Made by a program: the position numbers and the translations under genes. DNA of 64,000 nt. Origin: Clostridia bacterium. GTDB lineage: Bacteria; Bacillota; Clostridia; Oscillospirales; CAG-272. The notes under the pieces are model-generated. The model was given only the letters and a program-made list of their open reading frames with translations. It was not told the DNA's origin and made no database searches. Positions 8,839-63,974 of this stretch are shown in pieces. The first letter of the stretch is position 1. Every line of letters begins with the position of its first letter. The stretch covers positions 45,094 to 109,093 of the forward strand of contig JAFQUJ010000016.1 of the NCBI GenBank assembly GCA_017408585.1, read 5' to 3'.

Positions 8839-8910
8839 ATTATCCCCCCCTTTTTCGTTTTCGTTAGATATATTAGCACAAAGCAATCTTTAATTCAAGA
8901 TAAAAAAGAA

Positions 8911-25322: not shown

Positions 25323-25410
25323 TTATACAACATCTACACCCATCCACCATCTATGGTGGTCCTTCCCCTCCGTTCAAAGAGGAGACTTTAATGTGTGTCA
25401 AAGACAAAAG

Positions 25411-25441
25411 AAAAACACCTTGAAAAATCAAGGTGTTTTTT
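25411..25441. terminator. bidirectional terminator (copy 1 of a thrice-repeated terminator sequence)
   Basis: AAAAACACCTTGA-aaaa-TCAAGGTGTTTTT. Near-identical copies at 27501-27529 and 29585-29616. Confidence 0.7.
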
Positions 25442-25451
25442 GTGTTTTTAA

Positions 25452-27344
25452 TTATTCCTCGTCATTTGTAGGAACGAGTGCATCAAGAGTTGTTGGAGCA
25501 AGAACCTTTTCAGCCTGCTCATAGGTTACTGTATAGAGGCTTGCGTCCTCGTAGTCAAGAGTTGATACCTTGCATGAGGTTGTTGTGTCCTGAATGAACT
25601 GAACCTCTTCGCCTTCAACATAAGCATACGCTGTGATTACAAGCTCCAGCTGTGTAAGCTCTGTTGTGGTAAAGCCACTAATTGAGAACTTGAAGTTATT
25701 ATACTCTACGCTCTCTTGCTCTATCATGATAGCGCCCTTCTTGCCTTCTGCCAAATTAACGCTTCCGTCTGCTTTCAAGAAGCGATTGCTTGCTAGGTGG
25801 GTTGGGTTTAGCATCAAGATACCGAAGGTGATATCCTTTTCGTTATGGAGATTATATAGGTCAAAGTTGTCCTTATTTACTGTCCAACCGCCTGCAATTG
25901 AGCCTGAGCCATCAATTGAGTATCCACCTGTGGTGCTGAAGATTGGATCAAGGTCTATTTTTTCGTTTGCTTGGTTACAGTTTTCTACTTGACAGAAGAT
26001 TTCGTGCAAGCCTGCGCTTGTAAAGCCCTCTGTGTAGGTTATTATATGCTTTACATTATGATCGTCTGCTACCTTTGCGATAAAGCCCTTACACTGAACG
26101 CCCTCTGCCTCGTTGTAGTTCTTGCAGTAGTTATCCTTTGTGCAATCGTAGTTTTCAAACTCGTGCTCGAGCATTGAGTTTGGTGTTTCAATGGCGCTTA
26201 GCTCCTTACCGCAGAAGCAGTTTGTTGTTACCTTTTCAAGTGAGTAACAGGTTGCTGGGACAAGATCTGCGAGTCTTGGATCTTCGAGGTGCTTTGCAAG
26301 ATCAGCTTCAGACGCACAGAATACGGCTGTTCTTGTGTTTGAATAGCTTTCAAAATCCGAGCTTGACTTATCGTTTGCGTTTGCAAAAATAATTTTTTGT
26401 GTGCTTCCCCAATATCCTGTGGAAATTGTAGTCATGTCGCCCAAAAATACGATTGTATTTTTAGGTCCGTTCTGGAAGAAATACTGATTTGGCATAGCTG
26501 TGAGTTTATCGCCAAATACTAATACATCGTTTAGATTCTTACATTCTCTACATACGCTATTGTTTGAAATGCTCGTAAGGTTTGCAGGGAAATAGTAAAT
26601 TTCCGGTTTTTCCGGAACATTCTCATATGTAAAGGTTTCGTTTACAAAATACATATTAACGCAATCATCAAAGCTTGCATTTCTTGATCCGCCGCCACCA
26701 CTTGACCATGTTTCAAGCGACTCCGAAAGGTGTACCGCACCTAAGTTCGTACATCCTGAAAAGTGAGCAACATCGTATAGCGAGGTAAAGCAGTCGGGCA
26801 TTGAGAATGCTTTAAGATTTTTACAGCCATAGAACATATATGACGGGAAGACTCTCATCGTATTGTTTTCACTAAACTTAAGTGTACACTCCTCAAGTCC
26901 TGTTGCATTTTGGAAAATGGCATTTGAAAGACTTGATATAGTATCTGGGAAGGTTATCCACTTCAATGTTGTACCGTTGCTTCCTGCATACTTTGCAACA
27001 TGAGTGATTCCGGTAGGGATATCGAAGCCCTTTATGTCTGCATAAGTATAAAGATTGCCAGCCTCCTCGGTTTTGCCAAGCTTGCTGTTGATATAGTCAA
27101 AATCCATATAAGACTCAAAAGTAGTATTATAGTTTCCTGAGCCTACGGTCGAGGTATCCTTAAACACATAGCTTACAGGACACTTAAAGCCGTCATAGAA
27201 TTCAACAATTTCGCTATCAATACATTGATATTTGGTTCTTACAGGTGCGTCGGTGTAGGTTGTAACCTCTGCACTAACAGAGATTGCAAGCACAGCGCAA
27301 AGTGCAATTACCATTACAAGAGTTAAAAGCAATTTCTTTTTCAT
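25452..27344 (-). CDS. secreted BspA-type leucine-rich-repeat protein, paralog 1 (signal peptide + LRR + Cys-rich module + conserved C-terminal domain)
   Basis: 630 aa. Signal peptide MKKKLLLTLVMVIALCAVLAISVSAE. LRR_5-like repeats (FQNATGLEECTL, FYGCKNLKAF, FSGCTNLGAV). The C-terminal ~190 aa are nearly identical to paralog 2. Confidence 0.75.
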   Translation of the reverse strand: MKKKLLLTLVMVIALCAVLAISVSAEVTTYTDAPVRTKYQCIDSEIVEFYDGFKCPVSYVFKDTSTVGSGNYNTTFESYMDFDYINSKLGKTEEAGNLYTYADIKGFDIPTGITHVAKYAGSNGTTLKWITFPDTISSLSNAIFQNATGLEECTLKFSENNTMRVFPSYMFYGCKNLKAFSMPDCFTSLYDVAHFSGCTNLGAVHLSESLETWSSGGGGSRNASFDDCVNMYFVNETFTYENVPEKPEIYYFPANLTSISNNSVCRECKNLNDVLVFGDKLTAMPNQYFFQNGPKNTIVFLGDMTTISTGYWGSTQKIIFANANDKSSSDFESYSNTRTAVFCASEADLAKHLEDPRLADLVPATCYSLEKVTTNCFCGKELSAIETPNSMLEHEFENYDCTKDNYCKNYNEAEGVQCKGFIAKVADDHNVKHIITYTEGFTSAGLHEIFCQVENCNQANEKIDLDPIFSTTGGYSIDGSGSIAGGWTVNKDNFDLYNLHNEKDITFGILMLNPTHLASNRFLKADGSVNLAEGKKGAIMIEQESVEYNNFKFSISGFTTTELTQLELVITAYAYVEGEEVQFIQDTTTSCKVSTLDYEDASLYTVTYEQAEKVLAPTTLDALVPTNDEE

Positions 27345-27358
27345 ATTTTTCTCCTTGT

Positions 27359-27380
27359 GGGGTCGAGTGGCTCGACACCC
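27359..27380 (-). promoter_or_regulatory. 5'UTR stem-loop abutting the Shine-Dalgarno of LRR gene 1
   Basis: mRNA sense: GGGUGUCGAG-ccac-UCGACCCC, then acAAGGAGAaaaauAUG. Conserved at 29447-29468. An analogous hairpin sits at 63741-63757. Confidence 0.45.
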
Positions 27381-27405
27381 ATTATATAAATATTATTGTA
27401 GCTAT

Positions 27406-27435
27406 ATTATATATCATCAAGCATTAATATGTCAA
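27406..27435 (-). promoter_or_regulatory. sigma70-like promoter of LRR gene 1
   Basis: Minus strand: TTGACA (27435-27430), 18 nt spacer, TATAAT (27411-27406). Confidence 0.6.
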
Positions 27436-27437
27436 GT

Positions 27438-27494
27438 CATTTTGCACAAAAATAAAGCCCCCCCCCCCGATTTTTGTGCAAAATGCACAAAATT
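27438..27494 (-). promoter_or_regulatory. upstream control module: 16 bp perfect inverted repeat around a G11 tract, plus a second TGTGCA/TGCACA palindrome
   Basis: + strand: CATTTTGCACAAAAAT (27438-27453), aaag, C11 (27458-27468), g, ATTTTTGTGCAAAATG (27470-27485), then CACAAAATT. TTTGTGCA-aaa-TGCACAAA forms a second palindrome. Confidence 0.6.
27458..27468. repeat. homopolymeric tract, C11 on + strand (G11 in gene orientation)
   Basis: Counted directly: 3 C at 27458-27460 plus 8 C at 27461-27468. Confidence 0.95.
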
Positions 27495-27498
27495 AAAC

Positions 27499-27530
27499 AA
27501 AAAAACACCTTGTAATCAAGGTGTTTTTTG
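27499..27530 (-). terminator. terminator of LRR gene 2 (copy 2 of the repeated terminator)
   Basis: ACACCTTG-taat-CAAGGTGT flanked by A and T runs. Confidence 0.7.
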
Positions 27531-27539
27531 TGTTTTTAA

Positions 27540-29432
27540 TTATTCCTCGTCATTTGTAGGAACGAGTGCGTCAAGAGTTGTTGGAGCAAGAACCTTTTCT
27601 GCTTGCTCGTAGGATACTGTGTAGAGGCTTGCGTCCTCGTAGTCAAGAGTTGATACCTTGCATGAGGTTGTTGTGTCTTGAATGAACTGAACCTCTTGTC
27701 CTTCAACATACGCATACGCTGTAATTACAAGCTCCAGCTGTGTAAGCTCTGTTGTAGTAAAGCCACTAATTGAGAACTTGAAGTTATTATACTCTACGCT
27801 CTCTTGCTCTATCATAATAGCGCCCTTCTTGCCTTCTGCCAAATTAACGCTTCCGTCTGCCTTCAAGAAGCGATTGCTTGCTAGGTGGGTTGGGTTTACC
27901 ATCAAAATACCGAAGGTAATATCCTTTTCGTTATGGAGATTATATAGGTCAAAGTTATCCTTATTTACTGTCCAACCGCCTGCAATTGAGCCTGAGCCAT
28001 CAATTGAGTAGCCACCTGTGGTGCTAAAGATTGGATCAAGGTCTATTGATGCGTCAAGCTGTGTGCAGTTTTCGTTTTGGCAGAATATCTTATGCAAGCC
28101 CATGCTTGTAAAGCCACTCACATAGGTCACTGTATTCTTTTCGATATGACTAAGTGCCTCGGCCTCGAGTGAAGCTCCACAATGTGCGTAATTCTTGCAC
28201 TCATTTCCCTTGGTGCAATCAAAATTTTCCTCATACTCGTGATCAAGCATTGTGTTTGGTGTTTCGCCCTCGCTAATCACAGTATTGCAGAAGCAACGGG
28301 TTACGCCCTTTTCGTTTGAGTAGCATGTAGCAGGCTCAATAGTTGAATGTTTAGGGCTTGCCATGTGCTTTGAAAGGTCGCTTTCGGAAGCGCAGAATAC
28401 GGCTGTTCTTGAATTGGTGTAACTTGCAAAATCCGCACTTGATTTGTCGTTAGCGTTTGCAAAAATTATTTTTGAAGTTTTCCAGTTGGTTGTATTTATC
28501 TCGGTCATATCTCCAAGGAATACAACCGTGCTTGTAACATTCTTGAAAAGATAGCTACCGCTTGCGGAGGTGATCTGTGTTCCGAACACCAAAACGCTGT
28601 TCAAGGAAGTGGCACTTTCAAAGGTGTTTGTGTGAATGGTGTGAAGACTTTCGGGGAAGTAGTAAATATCGGGTTTTGCAGGGGCTGTATCACTTGTAGT
28701 AAATGGTTCGCTTACAAAATATACCTTGCTGAGGTTTTGAAAGACTGCGTATCTGTTCGAGCCTGTCTTTTCAAGTATTTGAATGTTTTTCGATAGATAA
28801 ACGGGACCCAAGCTCGAGCAATCTTTAAAGAAGTTACCCTCACCTGTTATCGTGGTAATGCAGTCGGGAATGCTAAGCGCCTTTAATTTTGAGCAACCAG
28901 CGAACATCCAACCGGAAAGGGTTGTAAATTCGGTATCGGCTTCCGTATGCTCAAAAACAACCTCTTCAAGAACTGCTGAGTTTTGAAAACCGGTACTACC
29001 AATGGATGTAACGGTGTGGGGGAATGTGATTTTCTTAACCGAGCTCAAGGAGTGGGCAAATTGATCTCCAAGGGTAGTAATTCCCTCCGGAATATCAAGC
29101 TCAACAATGTTGTCAATTGTGTAATTCTTTCCCTTTTCCGTAAGGAATGAAAAGTCAAGCACTTTCTTAAGTCCAGCATTTCCGTAGGAGCCCTTATCAA
29201 CGGTTGCTTGGTCCTTGAAAATATAATGGCTTGGGCAAACAAATCCGTCATCAAACACAACATAGTCGTCAGTTGAGTTGACAAAGGTTGATTTTGCGGG
29301 CGCGTCGGGGTAGGTTGTAACCTCTAAAGCCTCGCCATCAACCGTTGTAATCGTTTTTGCACTTACGCAAAGAGCGAAAATCGAGCAAAGTACAATTACC
29401 ATTACAAGAGTTAAAAGTAATTTCTTTTTCAT
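27540..29432 (-). CDS. secreted BspA-type leucine-rich-repeat protein, paralog 2
   Basis: Start placed at MKKKLLLTLVMVIVLCSIFALCVSAK (ATG 29432, after AAGGAGA), giving 630 aa like paralog 1. The ORF-track upstream extension to 29507 would cover the conserved promoter/UTR. Confidence 0.75.
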   Translation of the reverse strand: MKKKLLLTLVMVIVLCSIFALCVSAKTITTVDGEALEVTTYPDAPAKSTFVNSTDDYVVFDDGFVCPSHYIFKDQATVDKGSYGNAGLKKVLDFSFLTEKGKNYTIDNIVELDIPEGITTLGDQFAHSLSSVKKITFPHTVTSIGSTGFQNSAVLEEVVFEHTEADTEFTTLSGWMFAGCSKLKALSIPDCITTITGEGNFFKDCSSLGPVYLSKNIQILEKTGSNRYAVFQNLSKVYFVSEPFTTSDTAPAKPDIYYFPESLHTIHTNTFESATSLNSVLVFGTQITSASGSYLFKNVTSTVVFLGDMTEINTTNWKTSKIIFANANDKSSADFASYTNSRTAVFCASESDLSKHMASPKHSTIEPATCYSNEKGVTRCFCNTVISEGETPNTMLDHEYEENFDCTKGNECKNYAHCGASLEAEALSHIEKNTVTYVSGFTSMGLHKIFCQNENCTQLDASIDLDPIFSTTGGYSIDGSGSIAGGWTVNKDNFDLYNLHNEKDITFGILMVNPTHLASNRFLKADGSVNLAEGKKGAIMIEQESVEYNNFKFSISGFTTTELTQLELVITAYAYVEGQEVQFIQDTTTSCKVSTLDYEDASLYTVSYEQAEKVLAPTTLDALVPTNDEE

Positions 29433-29492
29433 ATTTTTCTCCTTGTGGGGTCGAGTGGCTCGACGCCCATTATAAAATATTACTGTAGTTAT

Positions 29493-29521
29493 ATTATATA
29501 TTACCAAGCATTATATGTCAA
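29493..29521 (-). promoter_or_regulatory. sigma70-like promoter of LRR gene 2
   Basis: Minus strand: TTGACA (29521-29516), 17 nt spacer, TATAAT (29498-29493). Confidence 0.6.
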
Positions 29522-29544
29522 GTCATTTTGCACAAAAAATAAAG

Positions 29545-29554
29545 CCCCCCCCCC
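29545..29554. repeat. homopolymeric tract, C10 on + strand (G10 in gene orientation)
   Basis: Counted directly. Flanked by CATTTTGCACAAAAAAT and ATTTTTGTACAAAATGCACAAAATT. Confidence 0.95.
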
Positions 29555-29584
29555 GATTTTTGTACAAAATGCACAAAATTAAAC

Positions 29585-29616
29585 AAAAAGCACCTTGAAA
29601 AATCAAGGTGCTTTTG
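29585..29616 (-). terminator. terminator of the 119 aa gene (copy 3 of the repeated terminator)
   Basis: AGCACCTTGA-aaaa-TCAAGGTGCT followed by TTT. Confidence 0.65.
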
Positions 29617-29630
29617 TTATTAAGCTACAA

Positions 29631-29990
29631 TTACCATTCCTCACGCCAAGGCTTTGTGATATCCTCTTTAATTTCCGGATATCCGGCGTCCATTGCGATA
29701 TCCTCGATTATATAGCAAAGCTCCTCGCCCAGCTCGCTTTCAAGCATACAATAATCGGCATTTCTATTGATTTTATTGATAGCGAAAATGAGCTTTTTCA
29801 TTTGCTTTAAAATCTTCTCCTCGTTACCATTTTTGATTTTATTTACCGCCTTCATATATTTGATAACGAGCTTTCTTAACATCATTACATGACGAGAGCA
29901 AAATCCGCAATCATCGTCGGCATTTCTTGCCTCGATTAGTGGATCTACTATTTCATTGTCTATTCTTTTCTTATACTGCTTTATATCCAT
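29631..29990 (-). CDS. hypothetical cytoplasmic protein
   Basis: 119 aa, helical and charged. No motif recognised. Confidence 0.45.
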   Translation of the reverse strand: MDIKQYKKRIDNEIVDPLIEARNADDDCGFCSRHVMMLRKLVIKYMKAVNKIKNGNEEKILKQMKKLIFAINKINRNADYCMLESELGEELCYIIEDIAMDAGYPEIKEDITKPWREEW

Positions 29991-44996: not shown

Positions 44997-47171
44997 ATGT
45001 ATCTTATTATTGCTGAGAAGCCGTCGCTTGCCAGAAATATTCTTGCGGGCATAGAAAGGGTTCAAAATGATGAAATGAAAAAGCATAATGGATATTACGA
45101 GGGTGGAAATTACATTGTCACCTGGGTTTTTGGTCATTTATTCTCCTTGGCGGATATTGAGGATTATTCTCCCTCCGAAAATACAAAATGGTCAATGGAC
45201 AACCTTCCTTGCTTTCCTAAGGAATTCAAGTTCAACTTAAGGCGTGGCGCTGACAAGAAGGTTGATGCAGGTGTCAAAAAGCAGTTTGACATTATCAAGT
45301 GGCTTTGCAACCGTCAAGATGTAACCGCAATTGTAAATGCAGGTGACGCTGATCGCGAGGGTGAAATTATTGTTCGTCTTTGCGTTTCTCATGCGTTAAA
45401 GGACACATCAAAGAGCTTTGTTCGTCTTTGGCTACCTGATCAAACGCCTCAAACCATATCTCAGGCGCTTTCTGAAATGAAGGACGAGAGTGAATATGAC
45501 TCTCTTGCGAGCGAGGGCTTGGCAAGAACATATATTGACTGGCTCTATGGAGTTAATTTAACCAGATTTGCAACTCTTAAAACAGGAAAGCTTTTACGAG
45601 TTGGTCGTGTTATTGTTCCTATTGTTAAGGCGATTTACGACAGAGATAGCGAAATAAAGCATTTTGTTCCTGAAAAATATTATGTTATGCATTCACACGA
45701 AAAGACAAATGATGAATTTGTCGATTTGACTGCTAAAAGAAAATTTAAAAAGGAAGAATATGAGCAGATTGTAGCGGAGTGTGCAAAATACAATGCTGAG
45801 AGGGCTATTGTTACCTCGGTAAAGAAAAAGCGCTCTACTTTAAATCCGCCCAAGCTATTCTCATTATCTAAGCTTCAAAGCTATCTTGGCAAGAAGTTTA
45901 AGCTGTCCATGGACGACACGCTGACAACCGTTCAAAAGCTATATGAGGACGGATATGTTACTTATCCTCGTACAAACTCTGAGTATCTTGCGACAGCTGA
46001 GCAGGGAAAGGTTAAGACTATTCTTCAAAATGTAGCAAAGCTAGGCTACCCTGTGTCGTTTAAATTCTCAAAAAGCATTTTTGATGACTCTAAAATCGAA
46101 TCTCACTCCGCGCTTACTCCGACATATAAAATTCCCGATCCCAGCAAGCTAAGCGATCGTGAAAAAATCGTTTACACTGCTATTTTGAGAAGATTTGTGG
46201 CGGTATTCTGCGCACAGGATTGTATTATTGAAAAGAGCGAGATAAAAATAAAGGTTGGCTCACTTGAGGAGTTTACTCTTTCGGGAACTGTTATAATCGA
46301 GCCGGGCTGGACAAAATTTGACGATTACACTCAAAAGGATAAAATTCTTCCAAGGCTTGAAAAGGGCGACGAGGTTGTTATTAGCTTCAAGCCAACCGAG
46401 AAGGAAACCACTCCGCCTAAGCACTACACTATTGAAACGCTCAACAACTATCTTAAAAATCCATTTAAAGAGGATAAGGCGAGCGCTGACGAGAATGACG
46501 ACGAGGATTATCTCGCTATTTTCGAGGGTCTTGAGCTTGGAACTGAGGCGACAAGAACGGGCATTATCGAAAATGCGTGCAAGAGTGCTTATATTTCTCT
46601 TAAAAAGGACTCATATTATATTTTGCCAGATGGTGAGTATCTTATTGAATCACTATCTCAGCTTGGAATTATAATGGACAAATACAAGACCTCTGAGCTG
46701 GGACAGGCGCTTAAAAAGGTATTTCGTGGTGAGATGACAATTGAGGAGAGCGTAGCTCTTGCCGAGGCAGAGATTGCAAAGGTATTTAACCTCTCTCGCG
46801 ACCTTACAATATCAATTGAAGAGGACACCAACATTGGCTTTTTTGGTGATGTTGTGGGACTTTGTCCTTTGTGCGACGGAAATGTTGTTCGCACTAAATT
46901 CGGCTATGGCTGTTCCAACTTCCGTGAGAATGGCTGTAAATTCTCCATATCTAAAACGATTTGCTCTCGCACGATTTCGGTAGCGAATGTTAAAATGCTT
47001 TTAGCGACGGGCAAAACGAGTAAAATCCAAGGCTTTGTATCTAAAAACGGCAAGAAATTTGATGCTGTTTTAAGGCTTGACGCAGATGGCAAGGTGGTAT
47101 TTGATTTTCCAAATCCAACACCACAATCACAGCCACAGGATGCGCCAAATGGTACAAGGGCGAAAAAATGA
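44997..47171 (+). CDS. topB: DNA topoisomerase III with C-terminal zinc-ribbon repeats
   Basis: MYLIIAEKPSLARNI Toprim start. Active-site region YEDGYVTYPRTNSEYL. C-terminal CPLCDG...C..FRENGCKF. ATG at 44997 follows AGGGAGGA. Confidence 0.85.
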   Translation: MYLIIAEKPSLARNILAGIERVQNDEMKKHNGYYEGGNYIVTWVFGHLFSLADIEDYSPSENTKWSMDNLPCFPKEFKFNLRRGADKKVDAGVKKQFDIIKWLCNRQDVTAIVNAGDADREGEIIVRLCVSHALKDTSKSFVRLWLPDQTPQTISQALSEMKDESEYDSLASEGLARTYIDWLYGVNLTRFATLKTGKLLRVGRVIVPIVKAIYDRDSEIKHFVPEKYYVMHSHEKTNDEFVDLTAKRKFKKEEYEQIVAECAKYNAERAIVTSVKKKRSTLNPPKLFSLSKLQSYLGKKFKLSMDDTLTTVQKLYEDGYVTYPRTNSEYLATAEQGKVKTILQNVAKLGYPVSFKFSKSIFDDSKIESHSALTPTYKIPDPSKLSDREKIVYTAILRRFVAVFCAQDCIIEKSEIKIKVGSLEEFTLSGTVIIEPGWTKFDDYTQKDKILPRLEKGDEVVISFKPTEKETTPPKHYTIETLNNYLKNPFKEDKASADENDDEDYLAIFEGLELGTEATRTGIIENACKSAYISLKKDSYYILPDGEYLIESLSQLGIIMDKYKTSELGQALKKVFRGEMTIEESVALAEAEIAKVFNLSRDLTISIEEDTNIGFFGDVVGLCPLCDGNVVRTKFGYGCSNFRENGCKFSISKTICSRTISVANVKMLLATGKTSKIQGFVSKNGKKFDAVLRLDADGKVVFDFPNPTPQSQPQDAPNGTRAKK

Positions 47172-55739: not shown

Positions 55740-55829
55740 TTAATCCCCCCCGTATTTAACAACAGATTTTACTGCTTTAGTCCAAATAGAATTAGAGCCC
55801 GCCTCTATCCACTCTAACGCTTGTCCGTT
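55740..55829 (-). pseudogene. 29-codon start-less fragment (candidate toxin C-terminal tip)
   Basis: NGQALEWIEAGSNSIWTKAVKSVVKYGGD-stop, abutting the next ATG (GATTAAATG). Confidence 0.3.
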
Positions 55830-62117: not shown

Positions 62118-63728
62118 TTATACTATTTCAAGCGTACCATTGATTGTTTTAAGGGTTGTTATTCCTTTTTTCTTTGCTACATTATAAAGCGTAACAACCT
62201 CAAGGTTAACTCCGCCTACCGACTTTTCTTGATAGTAGGTTGAATCCTTTTCCGCTTGAACGAAGGTATAGCCCTCGTCATTCTTTACATAAAGCGCCAT
62301 TGCAAGATTTAGGCTTTGAGCATTTTCAGAGCTGAAGTTTTCAATTGCTATATTTACGATTGCATATTGAGTATCAACCTCAATTTGAATTCCCTTTCCG
62401 TCAACTACGCCTGCTTCTGTAAAGATGGTTTCGCCGATTGAGTCAGTATTAATAATTATAAGTCCAATTGATACAATTGCGTCAGGAGCGAATTCTTGAT
62501 ATTTTCCAAGCTCGATTTTATTGATTTTAAAGCCTGCGCTAAGACCGCCTGTGCCATCCTCTCTTGTGGAATATCCAATTGCTTCAAATAGCGCCGGGGT
62601 TTTGTACTCGCCCTCTTTATCAATAAGCTCTGTTCCAAGTATGCATCCTGCCTCGTTATTACAGGTTATCTTCTTTGTGCCCTGTGCGGTAAAGCCATCA
62701 GGGAATGTCCATTCTACTGTTACAGAGTGTGTCTTGCCTTCCTCTGATACTCCGCATTTTGAACAGGTAGCTCCTGTTGTACACATATGGTCATCCTCTG
62801 CGATTTCGTGTTTACCGTAAAATTCGCAGAAGGTCATAATGGTTGCCTCCCACAAAGCATTATTTGCATTCTTGTTGTTTCCACCCTGCCATATGGTTGT
62901 ATAAGAATTAATTTGATCTTCAGTGTAAACGCCTTCGGTTTTAGGAACTAGCCAAACCACGCTAAATGCCGAGGTGTTTTTGTTCCAGGTCAAGCGTGGG
63001 TCGCTTGCGTCTTCTGGGGTTATTCCCTCGTGTATATACACAACACTCTTTATATTTGAGTTGGAATTCAAGTTTTGTAAAGCAGTATTTCTAATCGTTC
63101 CTGTTGCACCCTCGTGGAATACGACCTTTTCCATGCTTGAGCAGAAGAAGTTACCTGTAAGAAGGTTGTTTTTTCCGTAGAAGTGAACCTCTTTAAGAGA
63201 TGTGCATCCACTAAGGAAGCCACCCTTAGATTGAGGCTCATATGCTCTTGCAAAGAAGCTTAGCTTTTCAAGCGCGCTCCAGCCTGCTAAGTTTCCTTGG
63301 CTACCTGCACCATCTCCGAGAACAGGTATATGGAATTCAAGCTCGGTTATTTGTGTATGCAGGCTTGTTGTCTTTGTGTCCTTGTCGGAAAGAGCATACA
63401 CGGATAGCGTTCCATTCCAGCCTGTTGAAAGTCTAACATAGCTATATTCCGCAAACTTATACACGGTGCCGTTTGAGTGTGTGAGCTCAATTGCGGGAAT
63501 TACAATTTTGGTAACGGAGGTATCGTGAAGGTAGATATACTTAAGCCTACAGTTTCCTCCTGTTTCCCATGGATTTTGAATTTCAAGCTCGTATGCGATG
63601 TCGGCGCTATCTGCCTCTACTTGCTCACCGTTGTGATTTACATATACAGCCTCAGCTGATACTGAAATTGCGAGCATACAAGCAATAGCGACTACTAATA
63701 ATGTCAACATTAAAAGTCTTTTTTTCAT
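62118..63728 (-). CDS. secreted BspA-type leucine-rich-repeat protein, paralog 3 (diverged)
   Basis: 536 aa. Signal peptide MKKRLLMLTLLVVAIACMLAISVSAE. LRR-like blocks (GCTSLKEVHF...), a Cys module (CTTGATCSKCG) and a C-terminal domain distantly similar to paralogs 1 and 2. Confidence 0.7.
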   Translation of the reverse strand: MKKRLLMLTLLVVAIACMLAISVSAEAVYVNHNGEQVEADSADIAYELEIQNPWETGGNCRLKYIYLHDTSVTKIVIPAIELTHSNGTVYKFAEYSYVRLSTGWNGTLSVYALSDKDTKTTSLHTQITELEFHIPVLGDGAGSQGNLAGWSALEKLSFFARAYEPQSKGGFLSGCTSLKEVHFYGKNNLLTGNFFCSSMEKVVFHEGATGTIRNTALQNLNSNSNIKSVVYIHEGITPEDASDPRLTWNKNTSAFSVVWLVPKTEGVYTEDQINSYTTIWQGGNNKNANNALWEATIMTFCEFYGKHEIAEDDHMCTTGATCSKCGVSEEGKTHSVTVEWTFPDGFTAQGTKKITCNNEAGCILGTELIDKEGEYKTPALFEAIGYSTREDGTGGLSAGFKINKIELGKYQEFAPDAIVSIGLIIINTDSIGETIFTEAGVVDGKGIQIEVDTQYAIVNIAIENFSSENAQSLNLAMALYVKNDEGYTFVQAEKDSTYYQEKSVGGVNLEVVTLYNVAKKKGITTLKTINGTLEIV

Positions 63729-63964: not shown

Positions 63965-63974
63965 CCCCCCCCCC
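63965..63974. repeat. homopolymeric tract, C10 on + strand (G10 in gene orientation)
   Basis: Counted directly. Flanked by ATATGCACAATAAACAAATA and GTTTTTTGTATATTTTGCACAAAAAT. The window ends at 64000. Confidence 0.95.

Follow-up and report, generated by a model that had tools for sequence, protein, structure and literature searches.

Two tandem genes for BspA-type leucine-rich repeat proteins in an uncultured hindgut Clostridia bacterium: ends probably homogenised by recombination, cores of older origin

The Tpr proteins of Treponema pallidum form a family with conserved ends and central variable regions, which undergoes intragenomic recombination. In the Firmicute Listeria, the inlGHE and inlC2DE loci contain tandem genes for leucine-rich repeat (LRR) surface proteins, and recombination between neighbours gave rise to a chimeric gene and to a change in copy number. 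The babA, babB and babC genes of Helicobacter pylori have near-identical ends and a divergent middle, which is thought to determine binding; gene conversion makes chimeras, gene content differs among strains, and control by simple sequence repeats travels with the 5′ end (PMC4552749). A variable poly-G tract upstream of tpr genes (tprE, tprG, tprJ, tprL and others) modulates their transcription together with a CRP-like motif-binding regulator (PMC7864442). Candidatus Mycoplasma girerdii has at least 28 copies of BspA-like LRR genes, eight of which show repeat-length variants in metagenome reads (PMC5476646), and mammalian TLR1 and TLR6 are tandem LRR paralogs with divergence limited by gene conversion (PMC2077338). 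Here we describe genes A and B, a tandem pair in a 64,000-nt stretch of DNA (the window; positions 45,094 to 109,093 of contig JAFQUJ010000016.1, assembly GCA_017408585.1) from an uncultured herbivore-hindgut Clostridia bacterium. The two genes are probably old paralogs with ends homogenised by recombination, ancient heads kept by purifying selection, and a putative switch for each gene.

The pair lies on the minus strand within positions 25405-29630 of the window, in two units of 2,088 nt that follow each other head to tail. Direct repeats spaced 2086-2088 nt apart across 25399-29615 confirm the tandem units of about 2.09 kb that had been proposed from the letters of the DNA alone (hereafter, the sequence-only reading). 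Read in gene orientation, each unit has an intrinsic terminator followed by the 15-nt palindrome TGTGCA-N3-TGCACA, a poly-G tract and another TGTGCA half-site; then come a perfect sigma-70-type promoter (TTGACA, 17 or 18 nt, TATAAT), a 5′ untranslated region (5′UTR) with a hairpin and the ribosome-binding site (RBS) AAGGAG, and a gene of 630 codons. The coding segments are the following:

25452..27344, minus strand: gene A, an open reading frame (ORF) for a 630-residue, predicted secreted BspA-type LRR protein
25452..25965, minus strand: homogenised 3′ block of gene A, encoding the C-terminal beta-sandwich domain (residue 459 onwards)
25966..27269, minus strand: divergent core of gene A, encoding the N-cap, A-type LRR head, middle region and Cys-rich stalk
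27540..29432, minus strand: gene B, an ORF for a 630-residue protein with a B-type LRR head and the same architecture as gene A

The start of gene B is assigned to the ATG at 29432, which replaces the previously chosen upstream TTG of a 655-residue ORF.

The two units were aligned globally, and the segments are given in the coordinates of gene A. The last 514 nt of the coding sequences (25452-25965 versus 27540-28053) differ at 23 positions and are thus 95.5% identical, close to the 20 or so differences that had been counted by hand over about 515 nt. By contrast, the core contains 614 differences in 1304 columns (52.9% identity), with values ranging from 34 to 78% across 100-nt windows, and the difference in identity between the 3′ block and the core has a Fisher p of 1e-80. 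The strongly diverged centre of the sequence-only reading is therefore real, and the sliding-window comparison, which had been set as a check beforehand, shows that identity is uneven along the unit. Outside the coding block, the terminator together with the 3′UTR (25411-25451) is 80.5% identical between A and B. The 5′ regions had been described as near-identical, which holds for the 5′UTR (93.4%) and the promoter (90%), and the switch is 92.6% identical; however, the codons of the signal peptide (27270-27344) are only 81.3% identical in nucleotides and 76% in amino acids. The A-B pair was assembled likewise from another sample in an independent assembly (L002), and it is therefore not an assembly artefact.

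Divergence was computed region by region by the method of Nei and Gojobori. Between A and B, synonymous divergence (dS) in the C-terminal block is 0.17, with a ratio of nonsynonymous to synonymous divergence (dN/dS) of 0.09. The dS of the LRR core is 2.45, and the Cys-rich and N-terminal regions have values of 1.8 and 1.9; the sites in these three regions are saturated, and their dN/dS is not meaningful. The dS of the shared segments lies far below that of the rest of the gene, which is the mark of gene conversion. Because synonymous divergence drops 15-fold and the non-coding segments are 90-93% identical, the likeness of the ends does not reflect constraint on the protein. The contrast in dS indicates that the ends share a recent common ancestry and the cores do not.

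Related loci were found using an alignment of 15 sequences and compared by identity matrices for each region and by sliding profiles of the proportion of synonymous differences (pS); the provenance of the genomes is known for the fetched loci and inferred for the others. The LRR cores of A and B have 41% amino-acid identity, whereas the core of A is 83-88% identical to those of P0004, P0005, P0008, P0010, P0016 and P0018, the C-terminal domains of which are just 17-27% identical to that of A. The LRR core of B is 96% identical to that of P0027 from the metagenome-assembled genome (MAG) GCA_017466455, the C-terminal domain of which is 55% identical. A, B, P0002 and P0021 have four different LRR types, and yet their C-terminal domains agree at 97-99%. 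In a second lineage, the C-terminal domains of P0027, P0024, P0023 and P0036 are 90-95% alike and are joined to four LRR types, and in a third lineage those of P0026 and P0025 are 82% alike. By their LRR, the proteins form the groups {A, P0004, P0005, P0008, P0010, P0018}, {B, P0027}, {P0002, P0024, P0026} and {P0025, P0023}. Between lineages, the C-terminal domain is the fastest-diverging part (17-57% amino-acid identity), whereas the A-type core stays at 83-88%. C-terminal modules thus group by genome lineage, and LRR heads group by type across genomes. Gene conversion at the ends, one of the two causes offered in the sequence-only reading, is supported by the dS contrast, the non-coding identity and these discordant matrices.

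Tandem members of the family in other genomes have a similar organization. In L006 (GCA_017466455), the 3′ 317 nt of the upstream neighbour of the P0027 gene are 95.3% identical to those of P0027. The array L056:1074-16305 of another species (also represented by L057-L059) contains five or six genes with Pfam LRR_5 domains, with near-identical terminator and upstream modules and different heads. The L056-L059 array has no poly-G tract, and in its A-type copy a frameshift separates ORFs of 350 and 200 residues.

The predicted changes in copy number and chimeric genes at the locus were found in strain L004, the flanking genes of which have a dS of 0.01-0.06 to those of the window. Between the same 119-residue ORF and the aldose-epimerase gene, L004 has one gene, and sliding identity along its short-read contigs shows that it is a mosaic. 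Its switch, promoter, signal peptide and N-terminal region are 99-100% identical to those of B; its LRR is of a third type, 83-86% identical in amino acids to those of P0024 and P0026; and its Cys-rich region is 98-99% identical to that of A. The C-terminal block has a dS of 0.065 to B versus 0.18 to A, and the 3′ side carries the terminator and the downstream flank of A. The junction between the core and the Cys-rich region lies at a short ATCYS motif, and there is no long identity to A on its left side. Therefore, collapse of two genes in the assembly made at k = 141 is unlikely, and we rejected the interpretation of the single L004 gene as a collapsed assembly, because the junction does not fall within a long shared stretch. 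The mosaic protein is present on two contigs.

Exchange extends to other loci. P0021, encoded by a dispersed paralog in L005, adjoins genes for GH31 and MFS-GH2 proteins. It shares the 3′ block alone (approximately 620 nt, dS of 0.07 to B), and the 5′ block is not shared. The variable sites of the C-terminal block are common in patches to A, B and the L004 and L005 genes. The shared 3′ block of P0021 and the patchy variable sites imply that exchange has also occurred between loci. A separate observation concerns the copy of gene B in L002, which has three C-to-A changes near its 3′ end (L002:1940-2010), all of which are nonsynonymous. None of them is shared with A or with the genes of L004 and L005, and micro-conversion from A to B was rejected as their source; an artefact of sequencing or assembly could account for them, as could conversion by an unsampled paralog.

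We propose that A and B, as paralogs of long standing, belong to a family of secreted BspA-type LRR proteins built from modules. These modules are the terminator, switch, promoter, 5′UTR and signal peptide; the N-cap with the LRR head; the Cys-rich stalk; and the C-terminal beta-sandwich with the following terminator. Homologous recombination, in the form of gene conversion, would recently have copied the ends between members of the family, and the cores would be too diverged to recombine with one another. The same recombination would yield chimeras, alter copy number, and move heads among loci, strains and probably lineages.

The exchange of heads could itself be regarded as the main cause of the mosaic: the framework would have been duplicated, and a foreign LRR head recombined into one of the copies. 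Orthologous loci do bear different heads, of type 4 in L005 and of type 3 in L061 from another lineage. The head of B has a dS of 0.16 to that of the L006 gene (pS of 0.04-0.14 over most of the head), whereas the 5′ end, Cys-rich region and C-terminal domain of the two genes are saturated, with a C-terminal dS of 1.57; the ComM/Mg-chelatase gene beside the L006 locus, a housekeeping neighbour, has a dS of 1.66 to its counterpart in L055. Similarly, the type-3 head carried by the L004 gene has a dS of 0.45-0.49 to those of L060 and L061, versus at least 1.6 elsewhere in the gene. Some heads thus appear, from these comparisons, to have crossed lineages recently. However, the nearest relatives of the head of A have a dS of 0.9-1.6 and give no sign of recent import, and the L005 paralog, with the C-terminal block but not the 5′ block in common, is a better fit to conversion of the ends. 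We therefore consider import of a head rather unlikely as the main cause, although it does not exclude conversion of the ends, as both amount to recombination at framework homology.

It is very unlikely that the mosaic and its variants were generated by metagenome assembly across repeats. The contigs of L002 and L003 do break at repeats or poly-G tracts, and gene B in L055 is joined to another downstream context: at L055:5372-7036, gene B (97% identical in amino acids to the copy in the window) is followed directly by the ComM/Mg-chelatase gene as in L006, where the window has gene A and the aldose-epimerase gene. Either paralogs have truly rearranged in L055, or the scaffold was mis-joined through the C-terminal repeat common to them. 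However, the A-B pair was assembled identically in at least two samples, and the L004 chimera stands on two contigs, with a junction that makes collapse at k = 141 unlikely.

The divergent middle had also been attributed to diversifying selection on the ligand-binding LRR core. The A-type core has a dN/dS of 0.06-0.11 to those of L008, L010, L007 and L056 from other species; the B-type core has a dN/dS of 0.15 to that of L006 and of 0.12 within the species to that of L055; and the values of the type-3 core are 0.15-0.20. Averaged over regions, the dN/dS of the core is not elevated, an outcome that the sequence-only reading had itself named as contradicting its proposal. With low dN/dS and types conserved at 83-96% amino-acid identity elsewhere, the heads are old, conserved LRR types under purifying selection and not fast-evolving copies, and diversifying selection is not supported. 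It is accordingly highly improbable that the pair arose by a recent tandem duplication followed by rapid diversifying selection on the core, with ends that have not yet diverged. Such a history predicts conserved ends and a divergent middle at first sight, and LRR heads are plausible ligand-binding surfaces, with Foldseek matches to BspA-type adhesin-like structures; however, the dS of 2.45 in the cores versus 0.17 at the ends makes the cores far older, the cores are nearer to those of other genomes (83-96%) than to that of the neighbour (41%), and dN/dS within the core types is 0.06-0.15. Equally implausible is a history without recombination, in which purifying selection much stronger than that on the core preserved the ends: the low dN/dS of the C-terminal block (0.09) and the conserved motifs of the promoter and switch agree with it, but protein constraint would not cut dS 15-fold, the C-terminal domain is the part that diverges fastest between lineages (17-57% versus 83-88% for the core), and its polymorphic sites are patchily shared by the A, B, L004 and L005 genes.

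Several points weigh against homogenisation of the ends of old paralogs as the preferred explanation. The dS of 0.17 between the C-terminal blocks of A and B exceeds the strain-level dS of the flanks (0.01-0.06), and therefore the last exchange between A and B was not very recent, or was patchy. The C-terminal domain of the distant paralog C (described below) is not homogenised and is 22% identical to those of A and B, and the upstream neighbour in L061 is 79% identical at its 3′ end and has another C-terminal type. The background dS between lineages rests on L055, the join of which could be a mis-assembly, and the locus structure and tract heterogeneity were derived from four to five short-read metagenome assemblies. 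Positive selection may also have acted at a few sites of the ligand face, which would be compatible with a low average dN/dS. The direction and timing of single conversion events, and the effect of tract length on transcription, are what we infer from comparing sequences.

Proteins A and B match Pfam LRR_5 (PF13306) with 56.8 and 54.4 bits (gathering cut-off 27.7), and by profile and predicted fold they are BspA-type LRR proteins. Protein A consists of a signal peptide, an N-cap with the LRR head, a Cys-rich stalk and a C-terminal beta-sandwich. Its AlphaFold2 (AF2) model has a predicted local distance difference test score (pLDDT) of 87.6. A Foldseek search of the model against the PDB gave 4fs7, 4gt6, 4fdw, 6mlx (TpLRR) and 4cp6 (PcpA), with E of 6e-5 to 6e-3 and probability 1.0 but low TM-scores; the nearest solved structures are thus TpLRR, PcpA and cell-surface proteins of gut bacteria with LRRs of the BspA type. 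The Cys-rich segment after the LRR head is partly of low confidence in the model, and the homogenised 3′ block begins within a low-confidence linker after the last cysteine. The C-terminal beta-sandwich of approximately 170 residues, modelled separately (pLDDT 84.5), has no significant match in the PDB. With this domain alone, a word-indexed homolog search returned three fragments only; HMMER, run exhaustively over 1.84 billion representatives, detected the domain in 134 cluster representatives, almost always at or near the C-terminus of proteins of mostly 500-1,280 residues.

Inspection by eye predicts export of A and B from an N-terminal Lys-rich stretch, a hydrophobic helix (residues 2-23 in the AF2 model) and a VSA|E motif. 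The hydrophobic region has no lipobox ahead of a Cys, and the possibility that A and B are lipoproteins was rejected by inspection. Pfam and NCBIfam profiles detected no LPXTG, SLH, cell-wall-binding or transmembrane anchor in either protein, and NCBIfam gave nothing significant for them, only a weak, sub-threshold match to the adhesin HupY/LrrG with 18 bits (cut-off 1250). Both proteins would be displayed at the surface and may act as adhesins. Homologs come solely from MAGs of uncultured Clostridia, Eubacteriales and Oscillospiraceae, mostly from deer, sheep and goats (colon or cecum). A look-up with the exact sequence of protein B returned the source contig as the sole match.

The regulatory parts of the array, and a third member of the family in the window, are the following:

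25410..25441, both strands: terminator copy 1, bidirectional, found by a scan of both strands between the convergent aldose-epimerase gene and gene A; RNA fold of -16.7 kcal/mol, z = -5.9
27350-27355: RBS AAGGAG of gene A
27358-27381 (gene A) and 29446-29469 (gene B), minus strand: 5′UTR hairpin, directly upstream of the RBS
27406..27435, minus strand: promoter of gene A, TTGACA, 18-nt spacer, TATAAT; 12 of 12 consensus matches
27443..27448, minus strand: promoter-proximal TGTGCA half-site of gene A, 7 nt upstream of the -35 element, read from the sequence
27458..27468, minus strand: poly-G tract of gene A, 11 G on the gene strand, ending 22 nt upstream of the -35 element
27475..27489: distal palindrome of switch A, TGTGCAAAATGCACA
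27500..27529: terminator copy 2, downstream of gene B; fold of -18.6 kcal/mol, z = -6.2
29493..29521, minus strand: promoter of gene B, TTGACA, 17-nt spacer, TATAAT; 12 of 12 consensus matches
29545..29554, minus strand: poly-G tract of gene B, 10 G, ending 23 nt upstream of the -35 element
29561..29575: distal palindrome of switch B, TGTACAAAATGCACA, differing from that of switch A at one position
29586..29615: terminator copy 3, bounding the array after the upstream 119-residue ORF (29631-29990); fold of -20.3 kcal/mol, z = -7.8
62118..63728, minus strand: gene C, 536 residues, a distant paralog with the same module order; 24-27% identical to A and B by tblastn
63965..63974, minus strand: poly-G tract of gene C, 10 G, with flanking motifs as in the switches of A and B

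The terminator at 29586-29615 is the third copy that had been noticed near 29585, and it is 83% identical to copy 1. The 119-residue ORF was dropped as a candidate regulator of the switch, its sole match being a sub-threshold Rgg_C domain with E = 0.003.

The distal palindrome of switch A has two matches in the window versus 0.11 expected by chance. The architecture of the switch occurs in 11 loci; it precedes gene C as well as family genes of nine other fetched loci from several MAG species, and the position of the promoter-proximal TGTGCA half-site is kept across them. In L005 and L016, the tract is a poly-C on the coding strand. At L016:6001-7896, from Oscillospiraceae MAG SIG661, the family gene behind a poly-C10 switch is divided into two ORFs of 308 and 287 residues; it may be a pseudogene or frameshifted. 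In the class represented by A and B, six architectures of different composition were compared: five place the palindrome 39 nt from the -35 element (6+11+22, 6+10+23, 10+10+19 twice, and 8+9+22), and the sixth places it at 40 nt. Gene C, with a promoter approximately 240 nt upstream of its ATG and thus a long 5′UTR, has a distance of 35 nt and, together with L006, L012, L031 and L060, falls into another class with a spacing of 34-36 nt. The water-deer cecum MAG RGIG8547 (L034:3200-5989), which is syntenic with 57-63 kb of the window (PEPCK 91% identical in amino acids), has a family member of 929 residues where gene C stands in the window. C7 tracts at 8844-8850 and 55745-55751 of the window are without TGTGCA context. 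The exact pattern of the A/B switch had 0 matches in the JGI metagenomes scanned.

The tract of gene A has 11 G in the window and in L001, and 10 G in L002 and L003, which shortens the spacing to 38 nt. This is the sole indel over 5.5-7.5 kb of sequence that is 99.95-99.98% identical, in a comparison of few assemblies. Contigs of L002 and L003 end within a few nucleotides of the poly-G tract or switch repeat, which is consistent with repeats or tract-length heterogeneity breaking short-read assemblies. The tract lies outside the -35/-10 interval, unlike those of the porA or Mycoplasma vlp type, and the spacer between -35 and -10 is fixed at 17-18 nt; if the tract is a switch, it would be of the upstream-spacer type. 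The 39-nt distance, which is kept although linkers and tracts differ in length, and the occurrence of the tract on either strand suggest a spacer of double-stranded DNA, the length of which would set the phasing between a regulator and the promoter. Each gene has its own consensus promoter and, upstream of it, a 10-11-nt G tract between the palindrome and the TGTGCA half-site. In the proposed mechanism, slippage of the tract would alter the spacing between these two elements and could switch each gene independently. Independent switching of A and B by their G tracts, as suggested in the sequence-only reading, is plausible.

The 5′UTR hairpin of genes A and B, GGGYGTCGAG-CCA-CTCGACCCC, has a fold of -14.4 kcal/mol with z = -3.7 and also occurs in L004 and L006. 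Stabilisation of the mRNA and control of translation are possible roles. A search of Rfam with the intergenic modules found nothing.

A wider arrangement is possible, although we advance it only tentatively: a framework-plus-head system across a clade of uncultured hindgut Clostridia, with a pool of heads and a 39-nt spacer switch for each gene. Discrete types of head would be pooled and swapped at framework motifs among loci, strains and even species, and each genome would keep its own C-terminal module homogenised. A G:C homopolymer of 9-12 nt in either orientation would fix 39 nt between the TGTGCA-N3-TGCACA operator and the -35 element, and slippage would toggle the contact between a regulator and RNA polymerase.

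The mechanism that we favour for A and B, homogenisation of the ends of old paralogs, is of a known kind, namely concerted evolution and modular recombination in a surface-protein family, and the locus is a new case of it in an uncultured group. In this pair, conserved ends around a divergent middle are no sign of fast adaptive evolution of a binding domain; recombination resets the ends. Uncultured Clostridia of the animal hindgut possess a modular LRR repertoire with copy-number variation among strains, chimeras and a slippage-prone promoter tract, and the A/B family of putative surface proteins is probably phase-variable. To our knowledge, phase variation in gut commensals has so far mostly been described as DNA inversion, and literature searches directed at gut commensals or at the A/B LRR family yielded no description of the family or of its switch. 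The homogenised blocks of approximately 0.5-0.8 kb break metagenome contigs and may cause mis-joins, which matters for strain-resolved analyses.

Among the systems introduced above, TLR1 and TLR6 are eukaryotic receptors of innate immunity and provide an evolutionary analogy only. The Listeria internalins belong to another class of LRR and have LPXTG or GW anchors, and they are not known to have a homopolymer switch. The family of M. girerdii resembles A and B as a multi-copy BspA-type LRR surface family with repeat-length variation; its switch, however, is mostly a dinucleotide repeat that causes a frameshift, and tandem mosaics with homogenised ends and exchange of heads are not described for it in PMC5476646. 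The tpr genes share with A and B a family of paralogous surface proteins and a promoter poly-G tract accompanied by promoter motifs. However, Tpr proteins have a porin-like fold and the tpr tract lies immediately upstream of the transcription start site, whereas the tracts of A and B end 22-23 nt upstream of the -35 element between TGTGCA-type half-sites, and their regulator is only putative. The closest match is provided by the bab genes, with their mosaic structure, chimeras and link to a repeat switch. The bab genes encode outer-membrane beta-barrel adhesins of a Gram-negative bacterium at dispersed loci, and CT repeats in their coding sequence act by frameshift; by contrast, A and B encode LRR_5 proteins of Clostridia, stand in direct tandem with their own terminators, and carry a homopolymer upstream of the -35 element that would act on transcription.

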